64,000 nucleotides of DNA, taken from Patescibacteria group bacterium. GTDB lineage: Bacteria; Patescibacteriota; Patescibacteriia; UM-FILTER-42-10. The notes under the pieces are model-generated. The model did no database searches. It was not told the origin of the DNA and saw only the letters and a list, made by a program, of their open reading frames with translations. Of the stretch, positions 135 to 53,842 are shown piece by piece (position 1 is the stretch's first letter; every line of letters begins with the position of its first letter). The translations under genes were made by a program, and so were the position numbers. The stretch spans positions 16,415 through 80,414 of the forward strand of contig JBAYGW010000003.1 in the NCBI GenBank assembly GCA_041666485.1, in the 5' to 3' direction.

Positions 135-614
135 ATGCCGACACTTCCTGTAGTTACAGAACCAAACCCAATATTAAGAAAAAAAGCGGAAACTATCAAT
201 AATCCGCTATCTTCAGCTGTTCAGGAACTGATCCCAAAACTGACTGAAACCATGATTCAGGAGGACGGGATTGGTATCGCCGCTCCGCAGGTCGGTGAAT
301 CAATTCAAATGATTATTATCAACCAAAAAGACAGCCCAATGGTGATGATTAATCCCAGGATAATCACAAAATCAATCCGCACTGAAATAGCTGAAGAAGG
401 ATGTCTGAGCGTGCCCGGAATATTCGGCATGGTCAAACGTTCTAAAAAAGTTAAAGTGAATGCGATAGATGGTTTGGGTAAACCTTTTACAATCAAGGCC
501 GAGGGTCTATTTGCCAGAGTAATACAGCATGAAATTGACCATTTAAATGGCATACTTTTTATAGACAAGATGGTGAAACAAACTCGGAACCCGGGGGACG
601 ATAATATTCTTTAG
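135..614 (+). CDS. def: peptide deformylase
   Basis: Motifs GIGIAAPQVG, EGCLSVPG, HEIDHLNG. Confidence 0.9.
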   Translation: MPTLPVVTEPNPILRKKAETINNPLSSAVQELIPKLTETMIQEDGIGIAAPQVGESIQMIIINQKDSPMVMINPRIITKSIRTEIAEEGCLSVPGIFGMVKRSKKVKVNAIDGLGKPFTIKAEGLFARVIQHEIDHLNGILFIDKMVKQTRNPGDDNIL

Positions 615-1117
615 CTGTTTTGTACAATTTTTTCTATAAACTCTTCTTTTAATTTCCGATACACTCTGCCGTCGCCTTTAGCCGTTTTCACGGCTTGTTT
701 TTTTATTTTTGAATATTCCATCACCGCTTCCGGATGATTTTTCAGGTAATCACGGAACAAAATAATCCGTCGCCATTCAACTCCCCCCATTTTCACAAGA
801 TGAATATGTACACGTCTGATTTTCTTCTTACTAACGTAATCTCTCCGAAAAAATATCCTACCCGGGACACTGGCAACAGCACGGTACTCATAGCCGATAT
901 TCTCCAGTTTCAATTTTACTTTATGCATGTCCTTTTGTTTAACACCAACAAGAATATCAACAATCCCCTTTCCTCCTAAACCACGGACGGACGTGCTTCC
1001 AATATGCTCCACAAGAGCTTTACTTCCTAATGCTTTTACAATTTTATTTTTTTCATAATTATAAAACCTATTGTAATCTGAGGTATATTTATTAAAAACG
1101 TATTTTTTCATTTCCAT
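611..1117 (-). CDS. GrpB/UPF0157 family protein (nucleotidyltransferase-fold)
   Basis: HIGSTSVRGLGGKGIVDIL resembles GrpB HIGSTSVPGL..PIIDI core. Confidence 0.55.
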   Translation of the reverse strand: MEMKKYVFNKYTSDYNRFYNYEKNKIVKALGSKALVEHIGSTSVRGLGGKGIVDILVGVKQKDMHKVKLKLENIGYEYRAVASVPGRIFFRRDYVSKKKIRRVHIHLVKMGGVEWRRIILFRDYLKNHPEAVMEYSKIKKQAVKTAKGDGRVYRKLKEEFIEKIVQNS

Positions 1118-1126
1118 TGATCTTGT

Positions 1127-1426
1127 TTATTTACTTTTATTGATAGTTTTATAAACTGTGATGATAAAATATGGCAGAACCAACATAAACATATATTCTT
1201 CAATCGGCAGATTGCCAATTTTTATTCCGGTTAAACCAGATGCGCTGTAATCAAAATACCAATGGTGACTATAAACGGCAAAGCTGTCCCATGCAACTCC
1301 TACGATTAGTAAAATTAATACTGTGGAAATTCTTTGTTTCCATGAATTATATAAACCAATTTTGTTTTTCCATTGTAGAAAAACACTAAATATCAATATG
1401 AACGTTAATATGATTAGATAGTCCAT
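1127..1426 (-). CDS. small membrane protein, lycopene-cyclase-domain-like
   Basis: ~100 aa, 3 TM helices, W/PxEE pattern as in CrtYcd-type domain proteins; weak. Confidence 0.35.
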   Translation of the reverse strand: MDYLIILTFILIFSVFLQWKNKIGLYNSWKQRISTVLILLIVGVAWDSFAVYSHHWYFDYSASGLTGIKIGNLPIEEYMFMLVLPYFIITVYKTINKSK

Positions 1427-1503
1427 AAATATGCTTTTATCAATGTAATCATATCACTTTTTTTGAAATGGATAAATATTTGTGGATAAAAAAAGAGCTC
1501 ATT

Positions 1504-1800
1504 TTAGACGCTCTTACTTGCGGTACTTATTTGGTGAGTACCGGTGTAAACACCATGCACGATCAATCCTACCCCGACCAAGATACCGACGACAACGCAG
1601 ATCCTCATGAGCAGTGGCATAGCGCGCCACTCGCCTCTCCAGTACGCAGCACATGCTGCTTCAAACGTCAGGACAGGCTGTTCTGACTCTGTCTTTGTGA
1701 GCGGTTCCGTCATGCGGTTCCCGTTCCCTTCTGTTGGACAGGCTAGTGTTTCGGGGCGAAGAAAATGAGCTTCAAAGAAGTATATCACCTCATTCCCCAT
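1504..1800 (-). CDS. hypothetical small tail-anchored protein in GC-rich island (alternative + strand ORF 1468-1686 not excluded)
   Basis: ORF in locally GC-rich segment; C-terminal hydrophobic helix; no RBS seen. Confidence 0.22.
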   Translation of the reverse strand: MGNEVIYFFEAHFLRPETLACPTEGNGNRMTEPLTKTESEQPVLTFEAACAAYWRGEWRAMPLLMRICVVVGILVGVGLIVHGVYTGTHQISTASKSV

Positions 1801-1818
1801 TTGTCAATACTAGGAATT

Positions 1819-2103
1819 TCAGCTGTAAATTATCACACCGATGACAACCATAATATTGATGATAAATGACACTATATTCGTAAAAATAATCGGCTTCTTT
1901 TTATGTAACTTCCCATAAATAACCCAAAGGATTGAGTTAAACGCGTAGGTAATCCAGGCAATTAGTGAAACACCGTCCGCGTTCTTATTCAGCCAAATCT
2001 TTATTACCTGCGACGAAGTCAATATTGGAATTGCGATGCCCATAATATACATAACCCGATCAAGTAACTGAACTCTGTCTCGCGCTTTTTTATCCATATC
2101 CAA
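1819..2103 (-). CDS. SemiSWEET / PQ-loop sugar transporter
   Basis: ~94 aa, 3 TM, aligns with bacterial SemiSWEET core (…SQVIKIW…WITYAFNSILWVIYG). Confidence 0.55.
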   Translation of the reverse strand: MDMDKKARDRVQLLDRVMYIMGIAIPILTSSQVIKIWLNKNADGVSLIAWITYAFNSILWVIYGKLHKKKPIIFTNIVSFIINIMVVIGVIIYS

Positions 2104-2197
2104 ATAGTCTCAATTCTAGCGGTTAATGTTATATTTCTTGAATATTCTTACTACATAAGTCATACTGTAAACACAGTATATCATTATATCTGCAATT

Positions 2198-3163
2198 ATG
2201 GTTAGTAAAAAAGACGAAGTAAATGACAGCAAATTCAGAGTGGCATTTTTCGGCACGCCGGATTTTGCCGTGCCGGCTTTACAGGCACTGCTCTCCATGC
2301 CGGAAATTTACGTGCTCGCCGCTGTTACCCAGCCCGATAAGCCGGCCGGAAGAAAACAGGAGCTGACGGCCCCGCCGATAAAAAAATTGGCGGAACAATA
2401 TAATCTGCCGGTCTGCCAGCCGGAACGGATAAAATCGGTAAAATTTGAACAGTGCTTACGAAATGTCAATCTAGATCTCGCGATCGTTGTGGCTTACGGC
2501 AAAATCATTCCGGAAAAAGTTCTGGACATACCAAAATACGGCTGGTTGAATATTCACGGATCTTTGTTGCCGAAATACCGCGGTGCTTCGCCGATTCAGG
2601 CAGCAATCTTAAATGATGAAAAAGAGACAGGAATTACGCTGATGAAAATTGATGCCGGTTTGGACACGGGAGCCATAATTAATCAAAAAACCATTCCGAT
2701 CATGAGTGGTGACAATTTTGAGTCACTGCATGACAAGCTTGCTCTGCTCGGAGCAGATATTTTAAAAAGTTCACTACTTGACTACTTAAACGGAAAACTG
2801 AAGCCGGTACCGCAGGACGATTTGAAAGCGACTAAAACGCTGATTATAAAAAAAGAAGACGGAAAAATTGATTGGTCAAAAGATGCGTCCGTAATTGCCA
2901 GACACATTAGGGCATATAATCCGTGGCCGGGTTCTTTTTGCAAGTATTACAATAAGACCCTGAAAATACACTCTGCGGAAATAGCTGACGCAAAAGTTCA
3001 ACTGAGTCCTGGTAAAATTTCATATATTGATAATTCCCTTGTAATCGGCTGCGGAAAGGGTAATTTGAAAGTAACTGAACTTCAATTGGAAGGTAAAAGA
3101 TTGCAAACAGCCAATGAATTTATTAATGGTATTCCAGATTTTAGAAATGCTCAGCTTGCTTAA
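2198..3163 (+). CDS. fmt: methionyl-tRNA formyltransferase
   Basis: VAFFGTPDFAVPAL, NIHGSLLPKYRGASPIQ motifs; C-terminal domain. Confidence 0.92.
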   Translation: MVSKKDEVNDSKFRVAFFGTPDFAVPALQALLSMPEIYVLAAVTQPDKPAGRKQELTAPPIKKLAEQYNLPVCQPERIKSVKFEQCLRNVNLDLAIVVAYGKIIPEKVLDIPKYGWLNIHGSLLPKYRGASPIQAAILNDEKETGITLMKIDAGLDTGAIINQKTIPIMSGDNFESLHDKLALLGADILKSSLLDYLNGKLKPVPQDDLKATKTLIIKKEDGKIDWSKDASVIARHIRAYNPWPGSFCKYYNKTLKIHSAEIADAKVQLSPGKISYIDNSLVIGCGKGNLKVTELQLEGKRLQTANEFINGIPDFRNAQLA

Positions 3164-3328
3164 CCAAGCACAAGCTAAATAAAAAAATTGGCTCCTGCCA
3201 AGAACCCCACGCCTCATCCATTATAAATGTGTAGAGCAATCTCTACAGCTACATTCATTAGAAATGCCGTCCTTGAATTAATTTCTTTTTTTTATTTCCC
3301 CTAATTCCTGACCCCTAACTCCTATACC

Positions 3329-4819
3329 CTATTTCCTAATTTTCTCCGTCACATTAAATCCCATGTATTTACCCAGCATCAGCCGGGTCTGAGCATCAAT
3401 CGCTGGAATTGATCCGAAAAAGATCATTGTTACCGGAAAGAGTACCCATTGTAACAGCATTTCAACAAATTTAATCTTATGTTTTTGCTCGGGCCTTTTA
3501 GGCAGCAATGTCGTACTGAAAACTGCCATCAAAATCAGGCCGATCATTGCCGCGCTCATCAGCCACTCCAATACATAAGGCGCGGTTTGTGCGGCGATTG
3601 ATGAAGACTCCTGGTATCTGGCAACCGCAAGCGGTAGTCTACCTAAGATAAATATCAAAATCGGAGCTGTGGCCCAGGAATAATGTCCCTCCGCCATGTT
3701 CCACACGTAGTGAAATTTTTGTCGCCATTTAATTTTCTTATTTTTTTTGAAAAACCAAAGCATATACGGAAAATGCTCAATACCGTATGCCCAGCGCCTT
3801 TGCTGTTTATATTGATTTTTTAAACTTTGCCACAGGGTGCTGCCCATAACCGTATCCATGGAAACCGGTATGTACATAGGCGTCACAGTATAATCTCCGT
3901 CATATTCCAGAAAACACTGCAGAAATATTCTGGAATCCTCAGTGACAATATCGTTCTGCCAGAAATCAATATCCACCAGTGCGCGGAAACTCATACTGTG
4001 TGATGAAAATGTAAATAATCTTTCCGGCCGTAACTGTTCGGTCATCAACCAGAATGTCGTGCCATTTGCCACCACCCGCATCAGTGCCGGCGAATCCCAG
4101 ATATTATTATTGAACAGAGGCACGGGCTGGAAACTGGTTTTGGTCGGATTCGGATGGTTAAGATACATGTTCGTCAAATACGCAAAATATTCGCTGTGCA
4201 CGCATGTATCAACATCAAACGAGGATACGATAACGTTTTCGTACGGAATATTTTGGCTGTCAATATATTCCTTTGTTTTTCTACCAGCCCAGGCGATATT
4301 TGAACCTTTCCCGGGCATTTCTCCCGGAATATTCGCCGGGTGTTCCACCACCAGCAGTTTATGAAACTTATCACCGAATTCTCTTTGCATAATTTCCGCA
4401 ATACCGCTCGCTCTTTCCCTATCCCGCTCCTCAATCGCAAACGTAACAATAAATTTGTCCTTCGGATAATTGGAATTTACTAAGCTCTGGAATGTTGATC
4501 TTATTACTTCAATCGGCTCTTTATATGTCGGCAACATAATAAAATGATACATGTCCTGCCAACGGGAATTTTTCCTGCATTCTTCCAACCAATTTACCTT
4601 GATCGCTCTTTTGAAACGGCGATACGAGATGATCATATACAACTGTAAATACAGTATGCGCATCAGCCACAGTAGATCAAAGACAATAATAAAATATATC
4701 ACCCAGATCGGCTGGAAAAATGACAGTGAAATTGCGGCAATAAAAGTAGTCCAGGTCAGCGCACCCGGGATTATTTCCAGAATTCTATATTTACGATAAT
4801 CAGACAGTTTATTAAACAT
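3329..4819 (-). CDS. family-2 processive glycosyltransferase, membrane-integrated (cellulose/chitin-synthase-like)
   Basis: Multiple TM helices, D/DxD positions, Q(Q)RRW motif (KQQRRWAYG). Confidence 0.65.
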   Translation of the reverse strand: MFNKLSDYRKYRILEIIPGALTWTTFIAAISLSFFQPIWVIYFIIVFDLLWLMRILYLQLYMIISYRRFKRAIKVNWLEECRKNSRWQDMYHFIMLPTYKEPIEVIRSTFQSLVNSNYPKDKFIVTFAIEERDRERASGIAEIMQREFGDKFHKLLVVEHPANIPGEMPGKGSNIAWAGRKTKEYIDSQNIPYENVIVSSFDVDTCVHSEYFAYLTNMYLNHPNPTKTSFQPVPLFNNNIWDSPALMRVVANGTTFWLMTEQLRPERLFTFSSHSMSFRALVDIDFWQNDIVTEDSRIFLQCFLEYDGDYTVTPMYIPVSMDTVMGSTLWQSLKNQYKQQRRWAYGIEHFPYMLWFFKKNKKIKWRQKFHYVWNMAEGHYSWATAPILIFILGRLPLAVARYQESSSIAAQTAPYVLEWLMSAAMIGLILMAVFSTTLLPKRPEQKHKIKFVEMLLQWVLFPVTMIFFGSIPAIDAQTRLMLGKYMGFNVTEKIRK

Positions 4820-45364: not shown

Positions 45365-46486
45365 ATGATTAAAGCCATCATATTTGATTTCGGGAACGTT
45401 ATAGCCAGTTTTGACAATGGTTTATTTTTGAAAAAAATTTCCAAATATACCAGTAAATCTATTGACAAGTTGTATGAACTAATCTATAAAAAATCAAAAC
45501 TGCCAAGCCAATACGAACAGGGAAAAATTAACTCCGATGAATTTTACAACCAAGTTGTAAAACTATGTGATCTGAAAATCAGTCAGATACAATTTAGAGA
45601 CGCCTATACTCAGATATTCACACCGATTCCGGAAACAATTGAGCTGATTAATGCACTTAAGCCAAATTATAAGCTGGGGCTTTTATCCAGCACCAGCGAG
45701 TGGGATTTTGAATTTGGATTCAAACCGCTAATTGATGTGTCTATTTTTGATTCAATTACATTAACCTATCAGCTAGGAATTAAAAAACCGGATCCGAAAT
45801 TATTTCACGATGCTTTAAATAAACTGAGTGTTGCCCCAAACGAAACTGCCTATATTGATGATCTCCCGGAAACAATTGAAGTAGCCAATAATCTGGGTAT
45901 TCATGGAATATTATTTACCGGTAATGACACCCTGCAAGCATCACTGCATAAACTGGGGGTTGAAGTTAATAATACCTACCGCCCGAATTATGTGCAAAAA
46001 GTTACGATAGCTGACGAGAATGACAAAAAAATTGGATACAAATACCGGGATCAAATCACAGAGACAGATATTTTTCGGGCGACCGGCTTGTGGATTACCA
46101 ATTCAAAAGGCGAAATACTTTTAGCCCGAAGAGCACTGTCAAAAAAAATGCATCCGGGATTATGGAGTACCGCCGTTGCCGGAACAGTTGAAGAAGATGA
46201 AACATACGAACAAAATGTAATCAAAGAAGCTGAAGAGGAACTTGGTATCGTTGGCGAAACTTTTATTCCGTATGAAAAAACCAGAATCCGAGGAAAACAC
46301 AATTTCTTCATCCAATGGTACACTTTAGTCATAAATAAAAAAGCTGAGGAATTCATGTTGCAACCAGAGGAAGTGGTTGAAGTAAAATGGTTCAAAAAAT
46401 CCGAGCTAAAATTGTTGCTGAAAGAAAAACCGGAAATATTTACGTCTTCGCTGCCTCAGTGGGTATCTTTATTCCTGGCGAAATAG
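45365..46486 (+). CDS. HAD-superfamily hydrolase fused to C-terminal NUDIX domain
   Basis: HAD motif I IIFDFGNVI, motif IV YIDD; Nudix box GTVEEDETYEQNVIKEAEEELGI. Confidence 0.7.
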   Translation: MIKAIIFDFGNVIASFDNGLFLKKISKYTSKSIDKLYELIYKKSKLPSQYEQGKINSDEFYNQVVKLCDLKISQIQFRDAYTQIFTPIPETIELINALKPNYKLGLLSSTSEWDFEFGFKPLIDVSIFDSITLTYQLGIKKPDPKLFHDALNKLSVAPNETAYIDDLPETIEVANNLGIHGILFTGNDTLQASLHKLGVEVNNTYRPNYVQKVTIADENDKKIGYKYRDQITETDIFRATGLWITNSKGEILLARRALSKKMHPGLWSTAVAGTVEEDETYEQNVIKEAEEELGIVGETFIPYEKTRIRGKHNFFIQWYTLVINKKAEEFMLQPEEVVEVKWFKKSELKLLLKEKPEIFTSSLPQWVSLFLAK

Positions 46487-46499
46487 ATTTGTACTATTG

Positions 46500-47420
46500 T
46501 TATATTTTTTTTGGAAACAGAATAGACAGGATAATTGAAGCAAAAAGCGCGAGCATAATGATGCCAAATGAGATTAATGACGATATATGGACACCAAATA
46601 TCCCAGAAAGCATTTTCAATCCGATAAACAACAGAATAAATGCCAAACCTTTCTGCAGATGATGAAAACGATGGAGTACGCTTTCAATCAGGAAGAATAA
46701 TGCTCTCAACCCCAGAATTGCAAAAATGTTTGAAGTGAATACAATAAAGAAATTTTGGGAAATAGCAAAGACCGCTGGAATTGAATCCACCGCAAAAAGG
46801 ATATCCGTCGCCTCAATCAATATCATTATTAAAAATAGCGAGGTAAACACAAACTTTCCATTTTCACGGTAAAAAAACTTTCCACTATGGTGGTTTACGG
46901 TAAATGGCAAATACTTTCGGGCAATTTTGATTATTCTATTATTATTAAAATCAACGTGCTCCTCTTTTTTCTCACGCAAAAGTTTAAAGCCGGTAAATAA
47001 TAATACCGCGCCAAAAATATACAACACCCAGTAAAATTGGTGAATAATATACGCTCCCACCCCGATAAAAATTCCGCGGAAAACAATTGCCCCCATTATG
47101 CCCCAGAACAAAACCCGGTGATGGTATTTTTCTTCTAATTTGAAATAACTGAAAATCAGCATCATCACAAACAGATTGTCAACGGACAACATTTTTTCCG
47201 TTACGTATGCGCTCATAAACTGGGCCGCCAGTTCATTACCCATATACAGAAGAATCAAAAAGCCGAACATTACGGAAATCAATATCCAAAATATTGATTG
47301 ATACAATGCCGGTTTGAATTCAATTCTATGGCTTCTCCGGTTAAAGAATCCAAGATCAACTATCATAAACAAAGTTACAATTATCCCGAAGAGAATAAAC
47401 AGTTTAGCTTGTATATCCAT
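46500..47420 (-). CDS. TerC family membrane protein
   Basis: SVDNLFV and EATDILFAVDSIPAV duplicated TerC motifs. Confidence 0.75.
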   Translation of the reverse strand: MDIQAKLFILFGIIVTLFMIVDLGFFNRRSHRIEFKPALYQSIFWILISVMFGFLILLYMGNELAAQFMSAYVTEKMLSVDNLFVMMLIFSYFKLEEKYHHRVLFWGIMGAIVFRGIFIGVGAYIIHQFYWVLYIFGAVLLFTGFKLLREKKEEHVDFNNNRIIKIARKYLPFTVNHHSGKFFYRENGKFVFTSLFLIMILIEATDILFAVDSIPAVFAISQNFFIVFTSNIFAILGLRALFFLIESVLHRFHHLQKGLAFILLFIGLKMLSGIFGVHISSLISFGIIMLALFASIILSILFPKKI

Positions 47421-47614
47421 AACAGCTGGTGCTTTATTATTTAAATCGTCTCATAAAAAAACCGGCATTCGGCCGGTTATAATTAATGCTAGTTCACTGT
47501 TCCAAAGCGCCCTCTTGTGGAAGGACCTTTTGCTTTTTCACTCCCTAGCATTCAAGGCATATTAATAATATCAAACAAATCACTAGAATGCAAACCTACT
47601 CAAAATACTTTTTG

Positions 47615-48250
47615 CTATTTTTTCTTTTTTGCCTTCGGTTTAGCTTTTACCGCCTTTATTACCTTCTTCTTAACTTCTGCTTTTACAGAAACCTTCTTCT
47701 TTATTTCGGGCTTAGAAACAGGTTTTACTTTTTCTTGTAATACTTCTGGCTCTGCTGCCGATAACTGCCGCAATATTTTATCTAATTTTTCATTAATTGT
47801 TTTTAACTGGCCGTCAAATCGCCCGCTATTGGCATCGCTTGGTTTTCGGTCAGCACTTCTCGGATCCTTCCCAAAACAGCTGGAACACAATACGGGCTTT
47901 TCTCCGGTAGGACGAAAAGGAACTTCACAGCTCTGCCCGCACTTGGAACAGGTAGCACTGAACATTTTTTTCTCATAAAAATTCGGCTTGCCGAAATCCC
48001 TGCCAAAAGAACGACCGGAACTTGATTTATCCTTTGCTTTGAAGCAGTTACTGCAATAAACCGGCTTGTTTCCCGTCGGTTTAAACGGAACTTCACAGCT
48101 TTGCCCGCATTCCGAACAGACAGCTTTATGCATTACATGATGGTCCGAGTCACCTCCCCGGTTATAACCGCCGCTCATAGATTCTCTGCGGTCAAAACTA
48201 GGACCGTTTTTTCGGTCAAATGATTTTCCGTTTCTGTTAAAGTTTTTCAT
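47615..48250 (-). CDS. tandem zinc-ribbon protein with RGG-like N-terminus and lysine-rich (H1-like) C-terminal tail
   Basis: Two copies of CxxCGQSCEVPF(K/R)PTGxKPVxCSxCF; tail KKKVSVKAEVKKKVIKAVKAKPKAKKKK. Confidence 0.6.
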   Translation of the reverse strand: MKNFNRNGKSFDRKNGPSFDRRESMSGGYNRGGDSDHHVMHKAVCSECGQSCEVPFKPTGNKPVYCSNCFKAKDKSSSGRSFGRDFGKPNFYEKKMFSATCSKCGQSCEVPFRPTGEKPVLCSSCFGKDPRSADRKPSDANSGRFDGQLKTINEKLDKILRQLSAAEPEVLQEKVKPVSKPEIKKKVSVKAEVKKKVIKAVKAKPKAKKKK

Positions 48251-48366
48251 AAAAATTTTATAATAATTAATGCGGGTTAAGTCTAGCTGTTTAAGTCATA
48301 AATAGCAAGCTTTTCATTAACATTTTTACGCTTTTGTGCTATAATTACAATAATTACGGAATTATT

Positions 48367-52119: not shown

Positions 52120-52401
52120 TTACTTTTTTATTGCTATCGGCCGTAGTGCAAAATACACAAAGGCAAATACAATGATTGTACCGATCATTCCGGCAAACGC
52201 CACAGCCAAGTAGTCATTGCCGAATATGTTCAATTCATAATCCGGCATTAGCACCTTTGAAGGATAATTTAGCGCTTTTACAATAAAACCCTTATCTTCC
52301 GCGACTTTTTCCAGGCCATCAGGGCTAGAAGAAGCAAACAAAGAAACAACACTTGCTGACAAAATAGATACTAATAATAGTATTTTATATCTTCTGTTCA
52401 T
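52120..52401 (-). CDS. PDGLE-domain protein (CbiN-like partner of CbiM)
   Basis: signal/TM, SSPDGLE motif, C-terminal TM; overlaps cbiM by 17 nt. Confidence 0.5.
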   Translation of the reverse strand: MNRRYKILLLVSILSASVVSLFASSSPDGLEKVAEDKGFIVKALNYPSKVLMPDYELNIFGNDYLAVAFAGMIGTIIVFAFVYFALRPIAIKK

Positions 52402-53089
52402 TGCCTTTTTCTTTTTGCATATACCAAACTATCGCAAACGTAATTATGCCCTCGCCAATGCCGATCAAAGCATGCGTCTTAACCATTGCGGGAATAACTA
52501 AATTCAGTGCAATTGTGTTTGAAATTGCCAGTTCAAGAGATGTCGCAATTGATGCTAAGACAACACTTAACCAACCAGCAATAAAAACAGACAATAGTTT
52601 AAACTTAACAATCTTCCTGATTCCCTTGTAGCAATAAAAACCCGCTATTGTACCAATTATGCCCATATTAAAAATATTTGCACCCAAAGCAACCAACCCC
52701 CCGTCCGCAAAAAAAATAGACTGTATAACTAGAACGGCCGATATCACAATCAAAGCTTCCAGCGGACCGAGCAGTACAGCCGCCAACACTCCGCCCAATA
52801 AATGGCCGGACGTTCCATTCGCCACCGGAAAATTAAGCATTTGTGTCGCAAACACAAATGATGCGATAGTAGCCATGCGTAACAATTTATCCTTTCCATA
52901 TCCAGACAGTACGGATGTTTTTTTTACCGTTGAAAATTGCGCACCTTCGGGCGTAGCTAGCGCAAGAATTTCCTTCTTTACAAAAAACTTTCTTTTTACC
53001 CTGCTAACAGCAAAGCTGACCGCAGCAACTGCTGCAGTAATTAATGAAGCGGACGTATTTGGTCCTAAAAATCCGTCTGGAATATGCAT
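52385..53089 (-). CDS. cbiM: ECF/cobalt-nickel transporter substrate component CbiM
   Basis: N-terminal MHIPDG; 6-7 TM. Confidence 0.8.
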   Translation of the reverse strand: MHIPDGFLGPNTSASLITAAVAAVSFAVSRVKRKFFVKKEILALATPEGAQFSTVKKTSVLSGYGKDKLLRMATIASFVFATQMLNFPVANGTSGHLLGGVLAAVLLGPLEALIVISAVLVIQSIFFADGGLVALGANIFNMGIIGTIAGFYCYKGIRKIVKFKLLSVFIAGWLSVVLASIATSLELAISNTIALNLVIPAMVKTHALIGIGEGIITFAIVWYMQKEKGNEQKI

Positions 53090-53092
53090 AGT

Positions 53093-53842
53093 TTATTCAA
53101 TGAGTAACATTAACGCCATTATTCCAATTCCGAGCATTAAGGACAGTAATTGAAACCACGATTTTCTAAAGTCGGTTTCTTTTTTCATTTCCGGAATTAA
53201 ATCAGCAGCAGCAATATAGACAAAACCGCCGACCGTAAACGCAACAAGAAATTCTTGCGTATTTTCCAAAACTGATCCAACTAATAAGGCCAGGACAGCG
53301 CCCGCTATTGCCGTTAATGCAGACAGAAAATTGAAAAGTAGCGCTTTTTTCTTGCTAAATCCGGCATGCAATAGAATTCCAAAGTCCCCTATTTCTTGAG
53401 GAATTTCATGCAATATTACTGCGACAGTTGTCGCGATACCTAACGGGATATTAACTAAGTAACTTCCGGCTATTATCATGCCGTCAATTAGATTATGAAA
53501 GCCATCTCCTACTATATTATTCACTGCAACAGGATGCGGATGATTTTCAGACGTTGGCACATGGCAATGTCGCCAACATAATATTTTTTCCAAAATGAAG
53601 AATAGTAAGAAACCCAATATAATCATAAAAGGGATCATTGCAATATTATTTGAATCTTTATAGACCTCCGGAATCAAATGAATGAATGCGTCACCTAATA
53701 ATGAGCCCGCGGCAAAACTAACTAAGAACAAAAGGCTCTTTTTTAGTTTCTCCATATCAATTGAAATTGCAACGATTCCAATCAATGAAACCAAACTTAC
53801 TATGAAGACGCTCCCAATTGTATATAGCCAAACTTGTGTCAT
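53093..53842 (-). CDS. ZIP family metal transporter (ZupT-like)
   Basis: HEIPQEIGDFGIL motif; 8 TM. Confidence 0.75.
   Translation of the reverse strand: MTQVWLYTIGSVFIVSLVSLIGIVAISIDMEKLKKSLLFLVSFAAGSLLGDAFIHLIPEVYKDSNNIAMIPFMIILGFLLFFILEKILCWRHCHVPTSENHPHPVAVNNIVGDGFHNLIDGMIIAGSYLVNIPLGIATTVAVILHEIPQEIGDFGILLHAGFSKKKALLFNFLSALTAIAGAVLALLVGSVLENTQEFLVAFTVGGFVYIAAADLIPEMKKETDFRKSWFQLLSLMLGIGIMALMLLIE

Follow-up and report, generated by a model that had tools for sequence, protein, structure and literature searches.

A two-finger CxxC-x17-CxxC protein of Patescibacteria with a conserved helix and a lysine-rich tail: a candidate RNA- and ribosome-linked factor

Gene and domain organization

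A 64,000-nucleotide stretch from a Patescibacteria group bacterium (contig JBAYGW010000003.1, positions 16,415 to 80,414; the whole stretch is referred to as the window) carries on its minus strand an open reading frame (ORF), 47615..48250, encoding a putative zinc-finger protein. The ORF starts with ATG, the first start codon past a stop, and extends through its own stop codon. The 211-residue product comprises, from the N- to the C-terminus, a head (MKNFNRNGKSFDRKNGPSFDRRESMSGGYNRGGDSDHHV), a first zinc finger (MHKAVCSECGQSCEVPFKPTGNKPVYCSNCFKAK), a linker (DKSSSGRSFGRDFGKPNFYEKK), a second zinc finger (MFSATCSKCGQSCEVPFRPTGEKPVLCSSCFGKD), an intervening segment (PRSADRKPSDANSGR), a helix (FDGQLKTINEKLDKILRQLSA), and a tail (AEPEVLQEKVKPVSKPEIKKKVSVKAEVKKKVIKAVKAKPKAKKKK). 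The gene is complete, conserved, and stand-alone. Its features are as follows.

47615..48250, minus strand: complete coding sequence for a CxxC-x17-CxxC domain-containing protein of 211 amino acids, isoelectric point (pI) 9.8, 23.4 kDa (ORF list, composition, hidden Markov model (HMM) matches, homologs)
48134..48250, minus strand: disordered head, residues 1-39, rich in Gly, Arg, Asn, Ser, Asp, and Phe, with one RGG at 31-33 (composition, alignment, mean predicted local distance difference test score (pLDDT) ~50)
48032..48133, minus strand: zinc finger 1, residues 40-73, MHKAVCSECGQSCEVPFKPTGNKPVYCSNCFKAK (Pfam and NCBIfam stretch 40-73, invariant columns)
47966..48031, minus strand: basic Ser/Gly/Arg/Phe linker, residues 74-95, containing GRSFGRDFGKPNF (RDFxRPSF consensus in the alignment, low pLDDT)
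47864..47965, minus strand: zinc finger 2, residues 96-129, MFSATCSKCGQSCEVPFRPTGEKPVLCSSCFGKD (two matched HMM stretches, regular-expression location)
47756..47818, minus strand: conserved amphipathic helix, residues 145-165, FDGQLKTINEKLDKILRQLSA (alignment, AlphaFold2 model, motif counts)
47618..47755, minus strand: disordered Lys/Val/Ala-rich tail, residues 166-211 (composition, pLDDT ~40)
47892..47956, no strand given: DNA repeat copy in finger 2, the reference copy (repeat search)
48060..48124, no strand given: DNA repeat copy in finger 1, 77% identical to the reference and 168 nt away (repeat search)

Two stretches of the protein matched PF23477 (zf_Tbcl_2, probable treble clef zinc finger; E = 2.9e-32, 110.5 bits against a cut-off of 27), and two matched TIGR04272 (the NCBIfam CxxC-x17-CxxC domain; E = 7.4e-33, 112 bits against a cut-off of 36). 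With these whole-protein E-values, chance is excluded for the repeats, and the profile matches make it nearly certain that the protein is a member of the TIGR04272/PF23477 family. A word-indexed search returned 1943 homologs, the best of which, from a Patescibacteria metagenome-assembled genome (MAG), was 92% identical and already named 'CxxC-x17-CxxC domain-containing protein'. A preliminary description of this gene, made from the sequence alone, had called it a protein of an uncharacterised type; this applies to its function, whereas the domain itself is catalogued under both accessions and near-identical MAG proteins bear its name.

Zinc-finger repeats

The two CxxC-x17-CxxC motifs, CSECGQSCEVPFKPTGNKPVYCSNCF (residues 45-70) and CSKCGQSCEVPFRPTGEKPVLCSSCF (residues 101-126), lie 56 residues apart. 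The spacing is C45-x2-C48-x17-C66-x2-C69 in the first and C101-x2-C104-x17-C122-x2-C125 in the second, so that the interval of exactly 17 residues occurs twice. All eight cysteines were invariant in 28 aligned homologs from the candidate phyla radiation (CPR), in which the consensus M-H/F-x-A-x-C-x-x-C-G-x-x-C-E-V-P-F-x-P-x-x-x-K-P-V-x-C-x-x-C-F appeared twice. Cys45, Cys48, Cys66, and Cys69 are the presumed zinc ligands of finger 1, with Cys52 as a fifth conserved cysteine; finger 2 has Cys101, Cys104, Cys122, and Cys125, plus Cys108.

The preliminary description had reported two nearly identical repeats of ~45 residues. The repeats are real, as the matches to PF23477 and TIGR04272 indicate, whereas 'nearly identical' was an overstatement, since the fingers share 68% identity over the 34-residue domain and 53% over 45 residues. 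The internal duplication that it had seen in the DNA likewise corresponds to a real repeat (65 nt, 77% identity, 168-nt spacing), which is not a recent event. Among the 23 residues identical between the fingers, 11 are encoded by different codons, and each finger has a higher mean identity to its counterpart in other species (0.74 and 0.68) than to the partner finger (0.63). Recent internal duplication is ruled out by this synonymous divergence and by the excess of orthologous over paralogous identity. These comparisons indicate that the duplication is old and that the DNA repeat reflects constraint on the peptide, because 11 of 23 codons differ and the fingers resemble their orthologs more closely.

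The segments PTGNKPVYC (residues 58-66) and PTGEKPVLC (residues 114-122) resemble the eukaryotic C2H2 linker TGEKPYxC. A relation to C2H2 fingers was rejected as a coincidence of short motifs, the PRDM9 and ZBTB matches in the PDB profile search being spurious.

Head, helix, tail, and predicted structure

The head (residues 1-39) contains six Gly, five Arg, five Asn, five Ser, and four Asp. Its start, MKNFNR, is conserved; M1 was invariant and F4 nearly invariant in the 28 aligned homologs. With a single RGG (residue 31) and a single RG, the window protein falls short of a di- or tri-RGG motif, for which two or more RGG or RG must stand close together. Among the 120 best homologs, just 37 carry two or more RGG, and RGG is abundant in archaeal and multi-finger members. 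The term 'RGG-like' previously applied to the Gly/Arg head is thus fair for the family and weak for this ortholog with its single RGG.

The tail (residues 166-211) consists of 46 amino acids, including 18 Lys, eight Val, and five Ala, with a pI of 10.3. A Lys-rich tail, with a Lys fraction of at least 0.3 over the last 30 residues, was shared by 115 of the 120 best homologs. Its comparison with H1 or AlgP in the preliminary description holds as regards Lys-rich composition and goes no further than composition, as the tail has no linker-histone match and lies outside the conserved core.

A conserved helix at about residues 142-165, overlooked in the preliminary description, follows the second finger. 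Its motif, Q-[FL]-x-x-[LI]-N-x-K-L-D-K-I-L-x-x-L, was shared by 111 of the 120 best homologs; two of its positions, K155 and L156, are invariant, and N153 and D157 nearly so. Hydrophobic residues occupy a/d positions (L149, I152, L156, I159, and L163). This pattern, together with the invariant N-x-K-L-D, fits a possible role in self-association or in a specific docking contact.

AlphaFold2, run with the homolog alignment, predicted the helix at 142-165 as the most confident element (block pLDDT up to 90) and two small modules of a beta-hairpin plus helix (pLDDT ~80-85, finger 1 at 80-91), the remainder being disordered, with mean pLDDT of ~50 in the head and ~40 in the tail. The predicted template modeling score (pTM) was 0.22; therefore no fixed inter-domain arrangement is predicted. 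A domain-only model had a mean pLDDT of 83. The modeled hairpin-plus-helix fold is compatible with a treble clef, and zinc binding by the Cys4 sites is putative. Searches of the PDB by sequence and by profile, made with the whole protein and with separate profiles of the finger and the helix, gave nothing meaningful; among the hits was a match over a 14-residue helix to a 'putative surface protein' at E = 0.011. A match to ribosomal protein eS26 was not significant and was set aside as noise, that protein belonging to a different family with different cysteine spacing.

Distribution and variation of the family

A single-domain profile matched 7101 cluster representatives (50% identity) at E <=1e-3 and 4243 at E <=1e-10. 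The top 150 of the 7101 were 124-339 residues long with two to five fingers, and none of these 150 was fused to an enzyme. Ten representatives that we read had no additional domain, and in the Pfam listings for the best 120 homologs the only addition was a faint PF14599. A species-level scan with one genome per species gave at least 583 loci (583 of 600 listed stretches were confirmed as relatives). The CPR distribution that the preliminary description had proposed to check is thus broad: many CPR lineages carry the family, as do archaea. Carriers among Patescibacteria include Uhr-, Davies-, Magasanik-, Falkow-, Komeili-, Buchanan-, Peregrini-, Peri-, Dojka-, and Saccharibacteria, Paceibacterota, and WS6. 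Archaeal carriers include DPANN (Woese-, Pace-, and Nanoarchaeota), Methanocellaceae and other methanogens, and Nitrosopelagicus. CPR-type copies with CPR-like neighbors were also found in MAGs labeled 'uncultured Gammaproteobacteria bacterium' (loci L009, L014, L018, L021, L022, L024, and others); the labels of these third-party assemblies look unreliable.

The whole architecture was kept in the 28 aligned CPR homologs, namely an MKNFNRGG head, two fingers, an RDFxRPSF linker, the helix, and a Lys-rich tail, and most of the 120 best homologs repeat the layout of a head, a pair of fingers, a helix, and a Lys tail. In Saccharibacteria, a single finger is combined with the helix and a Lys/Ala tail. 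DPANN members have either two fingers with RGG linkers or one finger with the same helix and an acidic tail; at two DPANN loci (L069 1002-1517 and L082 4983-5369), one finger and an N-x-KLD helix precede a strongly acidic Asp/Glu tail. Methanogens have tandem arrays of genes for ~62 residues, each with an RGG run and one finger, without helix and tail. Two or three such genes stand in near-identical tandem, with their spacers repeated too, at L070 4920-5708, L078 4926-5411, and L056 4938-5558. Members of the family range from one to five fingers, and multi-finger representatives have low-complexity linkers of RGG, RDR, and RS type between the fingers. The alignments indicate that the invariant core is an RG-rich segment plus the finger, because the Lys tail is acidic in DPANN and absent in methanogens; the helix is a frequent add-on, and the tail charge is variable.

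A tblastn search against plasmids and phages gave four weak single-finger matches, and the phage and anti-phage defense models of PHROGs and PADLOC yielded zero families at E <=0.1. One of the four tblastn matches led to a small unannotated ORF of Subdoligranulum variabile OY725857.1 (L084 2809-3111, plus strand), which has PF13451 (zf_Tbcl) fused to PF23477. This was the only combination with a second domain that we saw; the record is labeled a plasmid and has four annotated features.

In the literature searched, one paper on the prokaryotic domain was found (PMC12704099), none citing the Pfam or TIGR accession, and neither a solved structure nor a functional study of the family. That paper concerns Methanosarcina mazei, in which eight such small proteins were detected with high confidence by proteomics; the methanogen tandem genes for ~62 residues described above match this small-protein group. 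Two of the proteins, A00184 and A01980, bind zinc as measured using inductively coupled plasma mass spectrometry, their purification including a heparin column, and a role in transcription was merely suggested by the authors (PMC12704099).

Gene neighborhood across the family

Neighbors within 5 kb were surveyed at 80 species-level loci, with one genome per species. No universal neighbor or fixed operon was found across the 80 loci. Several families recurred, as follows.

Cold-shock protein (Csp): 8/80 loci within 5 kb, adjacent in L007 and L049
DEAD-box helicase: 7/80 loci, 7 nt downstream in L024
ABC-F: 7/80 loci, adjacent in five, four of them co-directional with gaps of 5-170 nt
BipA/TypA: 5/80 loci, directly adjacent in all five
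EngB: 5/80 loci, directly downstream in four
YchF: 1/80 loci

At least one of these families was present at 22 of the 80 loci, often directly adjacent. The ABC-F neighbors had NF000355 as the best NCBIfam match, at full length, and all typed ABC neighbors of ~485-505 residues were ABC-F. Among 150 immediate neighbors searched with Pfam, ribosome-binding GTPases were the most frequent, followed by ABC ATPases. By a rough expectation (~900 genes per genome, a single BipA or EngB), ~0.17 would be found in 150 slots, against five and four observed, a comparison that is post hoc, uncorrected for shared ancestry, and without a random-locus control.

Eight further contexts were picked without regard to gene content, and the same families appeared in five of them, with the zinc-finger gene abbreviated as ZnF.

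L003: DEAD-box helicase
L087: EngB-Csp-ZnF
L091: ZnF-GreA-BipA
L092: Csp on either side, plus ABC-F
L093: Csp-ZnF-ABC-F-DEAD

On the CPR contig of L091, a set resembling a cyclic oligonucleotide-based anti-phage signaling system (SAVED, a SMODS/DncV-like nucleotidyltransferase, and an SMC-like ATPase; 281-4356) lies just upstream of the zinc-finger homolog.

Gene neighborhood in the window

Upstream of the gene in the window lie a divergent MacB-type ABC ATPase and an FtsX permease; TerC (46500-47420, minus strand) starts 195 nt past the zinc-finger stop. Further out are a HAD-Nudix fusion, an HD protein, CbiM (52385-53089, minus strand, start ~4.1 kb away), and a ZIP zinc transporter (53093-53842, minus strand, ~4.8 kb). 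This gene order is common to the close relatives L001 and L085. The HAD-type hydrolase and Nudix parts form one ORF (45365-46486, plus strand) that is kept in both relatives. The metal-homeostasis genes near the gene, specific to this lineage, are TerC, CbiM (accompanied by PDGLE in L001 and L085), and ZIP, with FUR in L085 (1-1135). Two putative transcription signals flank the gene.

48257..48285, minus strand: putative promoter TAGACT-17 nt-TATAAA, ending 6 nt before the ATG (found by eye; the scanning tool made no call)
47460..47478, minus strand: terminator-like hairpin with a U-run, 137 nt past the stop (terminator scan, fold)

L001 has the same promoter-like geometry, and L085 a similar one. 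No Shine-Dalgarno sequence was found ahead of the ATG (48251-48285), and the mRNA may, judging from this region, be leaderless or nearly so. The hairpin either ends the transcript or belongs to the leader of the downstream TerC gene. In L085, which lacks TerC, a hairpin directly follows the zinc-finger stop.

In the interval from the zinc-finger stop (47615) to the TerC start (47420), ~110 nt (47479-47590, minus strand) are highly conserved with L001, and the first ~45 nt past the stop are not. The conserved element contains a long stem (AUGCUAG...CUAGCAU) followed by the hairpin at 47460-47478; its folding z-score was only -1.85. It is missing in L085, where TerC is absent, and may serve TerC as a leader or riboswitch-like element. 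A yybP-ykoY Mn2+ riboswitch was suspected between the two genes, and Rfam gave only look-alikes of terminator hairpins.

Possible function of the protein

Binding of nucleic acid is the most reasonable function to propose from the sequence. More specifically, we infer a ribosome-linked factor that depends on zinc and acts as a general RNA-binding or chaperone-like protein, and judge the chances of this reading to be about even. RNA or the ribosome is favored over chromatin because Cys4 modules are set within disorder of Arg/Gly type throughout the family, because members with an acidic tail or none still have the core, and because Csp, DEAD-box helicase, ABC-F, BipA, and EngB recur as neighbors. 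RGG repeats are established non-specific RNA binders (PMC4275035). The preliminary description had named a nucleoid or an RNA-binding protein as candidates; the Arg/Gly/Ser/Asp-rich linkers of the family and the recurrent neighbors lean toward RNA, with the nucleoid as the main rival.

Such a factor would act on ribosomes or structured RNA without sequence specificity, in the manner of a chaperone, with cold-shock proteins, a DEAD-box helicase, and ribosome-binding NTPases (ABC-F, BipA, and EngB) as possible partners. The RNA contacts of the two zinc modules would be made by the VPF-x-P and KPV[YF]C surfaces, both invariant. Electrostatic affinity and strand annealing would come from the Arg/Gly head together with the linker and the Lys tail, and the conserved helix would serve for self-association or docking of a partner.

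Several points weigh against a role on RNA and the ribosome. The window protein has a single RGG, and Lys-rich tails bind both DNA and RNA. The association with RNA and ribosome factors was seen in only about a quarter of the loci and is post hoc, uncorrected for kinship, and without a random-locus control. The neighbors in the window, the MacB-type ABC/FtsX pair and TerC, are unrelated to such factors, and homologs of Csp, EngB, and the DEAD-box helicase are absent throughout the 64-kb window. Experiments are limited to archaeal members (zinc binding in M. mazei).

A nucleoid-associated DNA-binding protein, in which an H1-like tail, as in Hc1, AlgP, or HupB, coats or compacts DNA and the fingers add contacts, is the rival that survives best, and we regard it as unlikely. 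The composition agrees with it, with 18 Lys among the 46 tail residues, a pI of 9.8 overall, and Lys-rich tails in nearly all of the best homologs (115 of 120), as does the binding of heparin by archaeal homologs. However, no linker-histone or other DNA-binding family was matched, and archaeal members that retain the finger and helix have an acidic tail or none. The neighbors, too, are RNA and ribosome factors rather than gyrase, HU, SMC, or replication genes, and the linkers of the family are of the RGG/RS/RD type typical of RNA binders.

Less probable still is a protein-protein adaptor or transcription regulator, that would use its fingers and helix to dock on RNA polymerase or a different enzyme in the manner of DksA/TraR or the TFIIB ribbon. 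The DksA/TraR finger has the same CxxC-x17-CxxC spacing, which counts for this possibility. Treble clefs that bind proteins or lipids gave the best structural matches, GreA is a neighbor in L091, and the invariant N-x-K-L-D of the helix suggests a specific contact. The proposal of a transcription role for the M. mazei proteins (PMC12704099) points the same way.

That the protein is a zinc buffer or reservoir, abundant and with two Cys4 sites like the zinc-containing paralogs of ribosomal proteins, appears improbable. Two Cys4 sites in 211 residues, the metal-homeostasis genes nearby in this lineage (TerC, CbiM, and ZIP, with FUR in L085), and the multiple paralogs of methanogens would agree with it. 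However, the metal-gene setting is confined to the close relatives L001 and L085 and was not found at other loci, and storage leaves the conservation of the RG-rich segment, the helix, and the Lys tail unexplained.

Finally, the reading that the preliminary description had named as its own refutation, a truncated zinc-ribbon appendage of a known enzyme, or else a chance ORF with no independent gene, can be dismissed almost entirely: no support for it was found, the frame is complete from start to stop, M1 is invariant and F4 nearly so, the 1943 homologs have ~200 residues, the top 150 of the 7101 representatives span 124-339 residues, the ten representatives read have no second domain, and the flanks are a divergent ABC gene and TerC, which starts 195 nt downstream past a hairpin.

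Significance

As a classification, the result is ordinary: the window protein is one more member of a family named in databases. What is new, as far as the literature was searched, in which no description was found, is the CPR-specific architecture, the conserved helix, and the neighbor pattern. The family comprises at least 7101 clusters (50% identity) and spans hundreds of CPR and DPANN species. We tentatively suggest, while regarding it as somewhat doubtful, that the CPR form and the RGG-finger mini-proteins of DPANN and methanogens make up an unstudied and very widespread class of prokaryotic zinc-finger/disordered RNA chaperones acting on the ribosome with ABC-F, BipA, EngB, DEAD-box helicases, and Csp. 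If true, this class would be a prokaryotic counterpart of the eukaryotic RGG zinc-finger proteins, possibly offsetting the reduced RNA-handling machinery of ultra-small cells. If the family supplies a general cofactor of RNA or the ribosome, it would provide a missing piece of how RNA is folded and ribosomes are assembled with minimal genomes. With 211 residues and two zinc sites, the protein would then also make a simple, purifiable target for experiments.

Comparison with known systems

The closest likeness is to M. mazei A00184 and A01980, which have the same HMM domain; in both, an RG-rich segment precedes the ..EMHKAxCxxCG..VPFxP..PVxCxxC.. core. The methanogen proteins have ~62 residues and one finger and occur in tandem arrays, whereas in the window protein two fingers are combined with the helix and Lys tail that characterize CPR members. 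A sister Pfam family, PF13451 (zf_Tbcl, probable treble clef), gave no match to the window protein.

Candidate memberships in other families were rejected. For H1/AlgP, no Pfam match other than zinc fingers was obtained at E <=10, and the tail showed no periodicity beyond a 17-nt pair at 88%. For DksA/TraR C4, zf-dskA_traR was not among the Pfam matches at E <=10, and the only helix, of ~24 residues, is C-terminal to the fingers. RanBP2-type, CCHC-type, and TFIIB-ribbon models gave no HMM match. We therefore place the protein outside all five of these groups because none was matched by an HMM.

In Chlamydia Hc1, Pseudomonas AlgP, mycobacterial HupB, and the C-terminus of actinobacterial TopA, there is likewise a disordered, strongly basic C-terminal segment rich in Lys, Ala, Val, and Pro. 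The tail of the window protein differs from these in having no periodic KPAA or AKKA repeat and no family match, and in being joined to zinc fingers instead of HU or a winged helix.

FUS, EWS, and TAF15, with a RanBP2-type finger, and plant cold-shock domain (CSD)/glycine-rich proteins, with CCHC knuckles, carry Cys4 or CCHC modules within Arg/Gly-rich disorder. The window protein differs from the RanBP2 and CCHC systems in its cysteine spacing and has no RanBP2, CCHC, RRM, or CSD match. Its likeness to the eukaryotic RGG zinc-finger and plant CSD proteins, small zinc modules in Arg/Gly-rich disorder, is thus one of analogy only. In the same sense, the CPR gene adjoining a cold-shock-domain gene (L049, L087, and L093) mirrors the fusion of a CSD with Gly-rich zinc-finger segments in plant cold-shock proteins.

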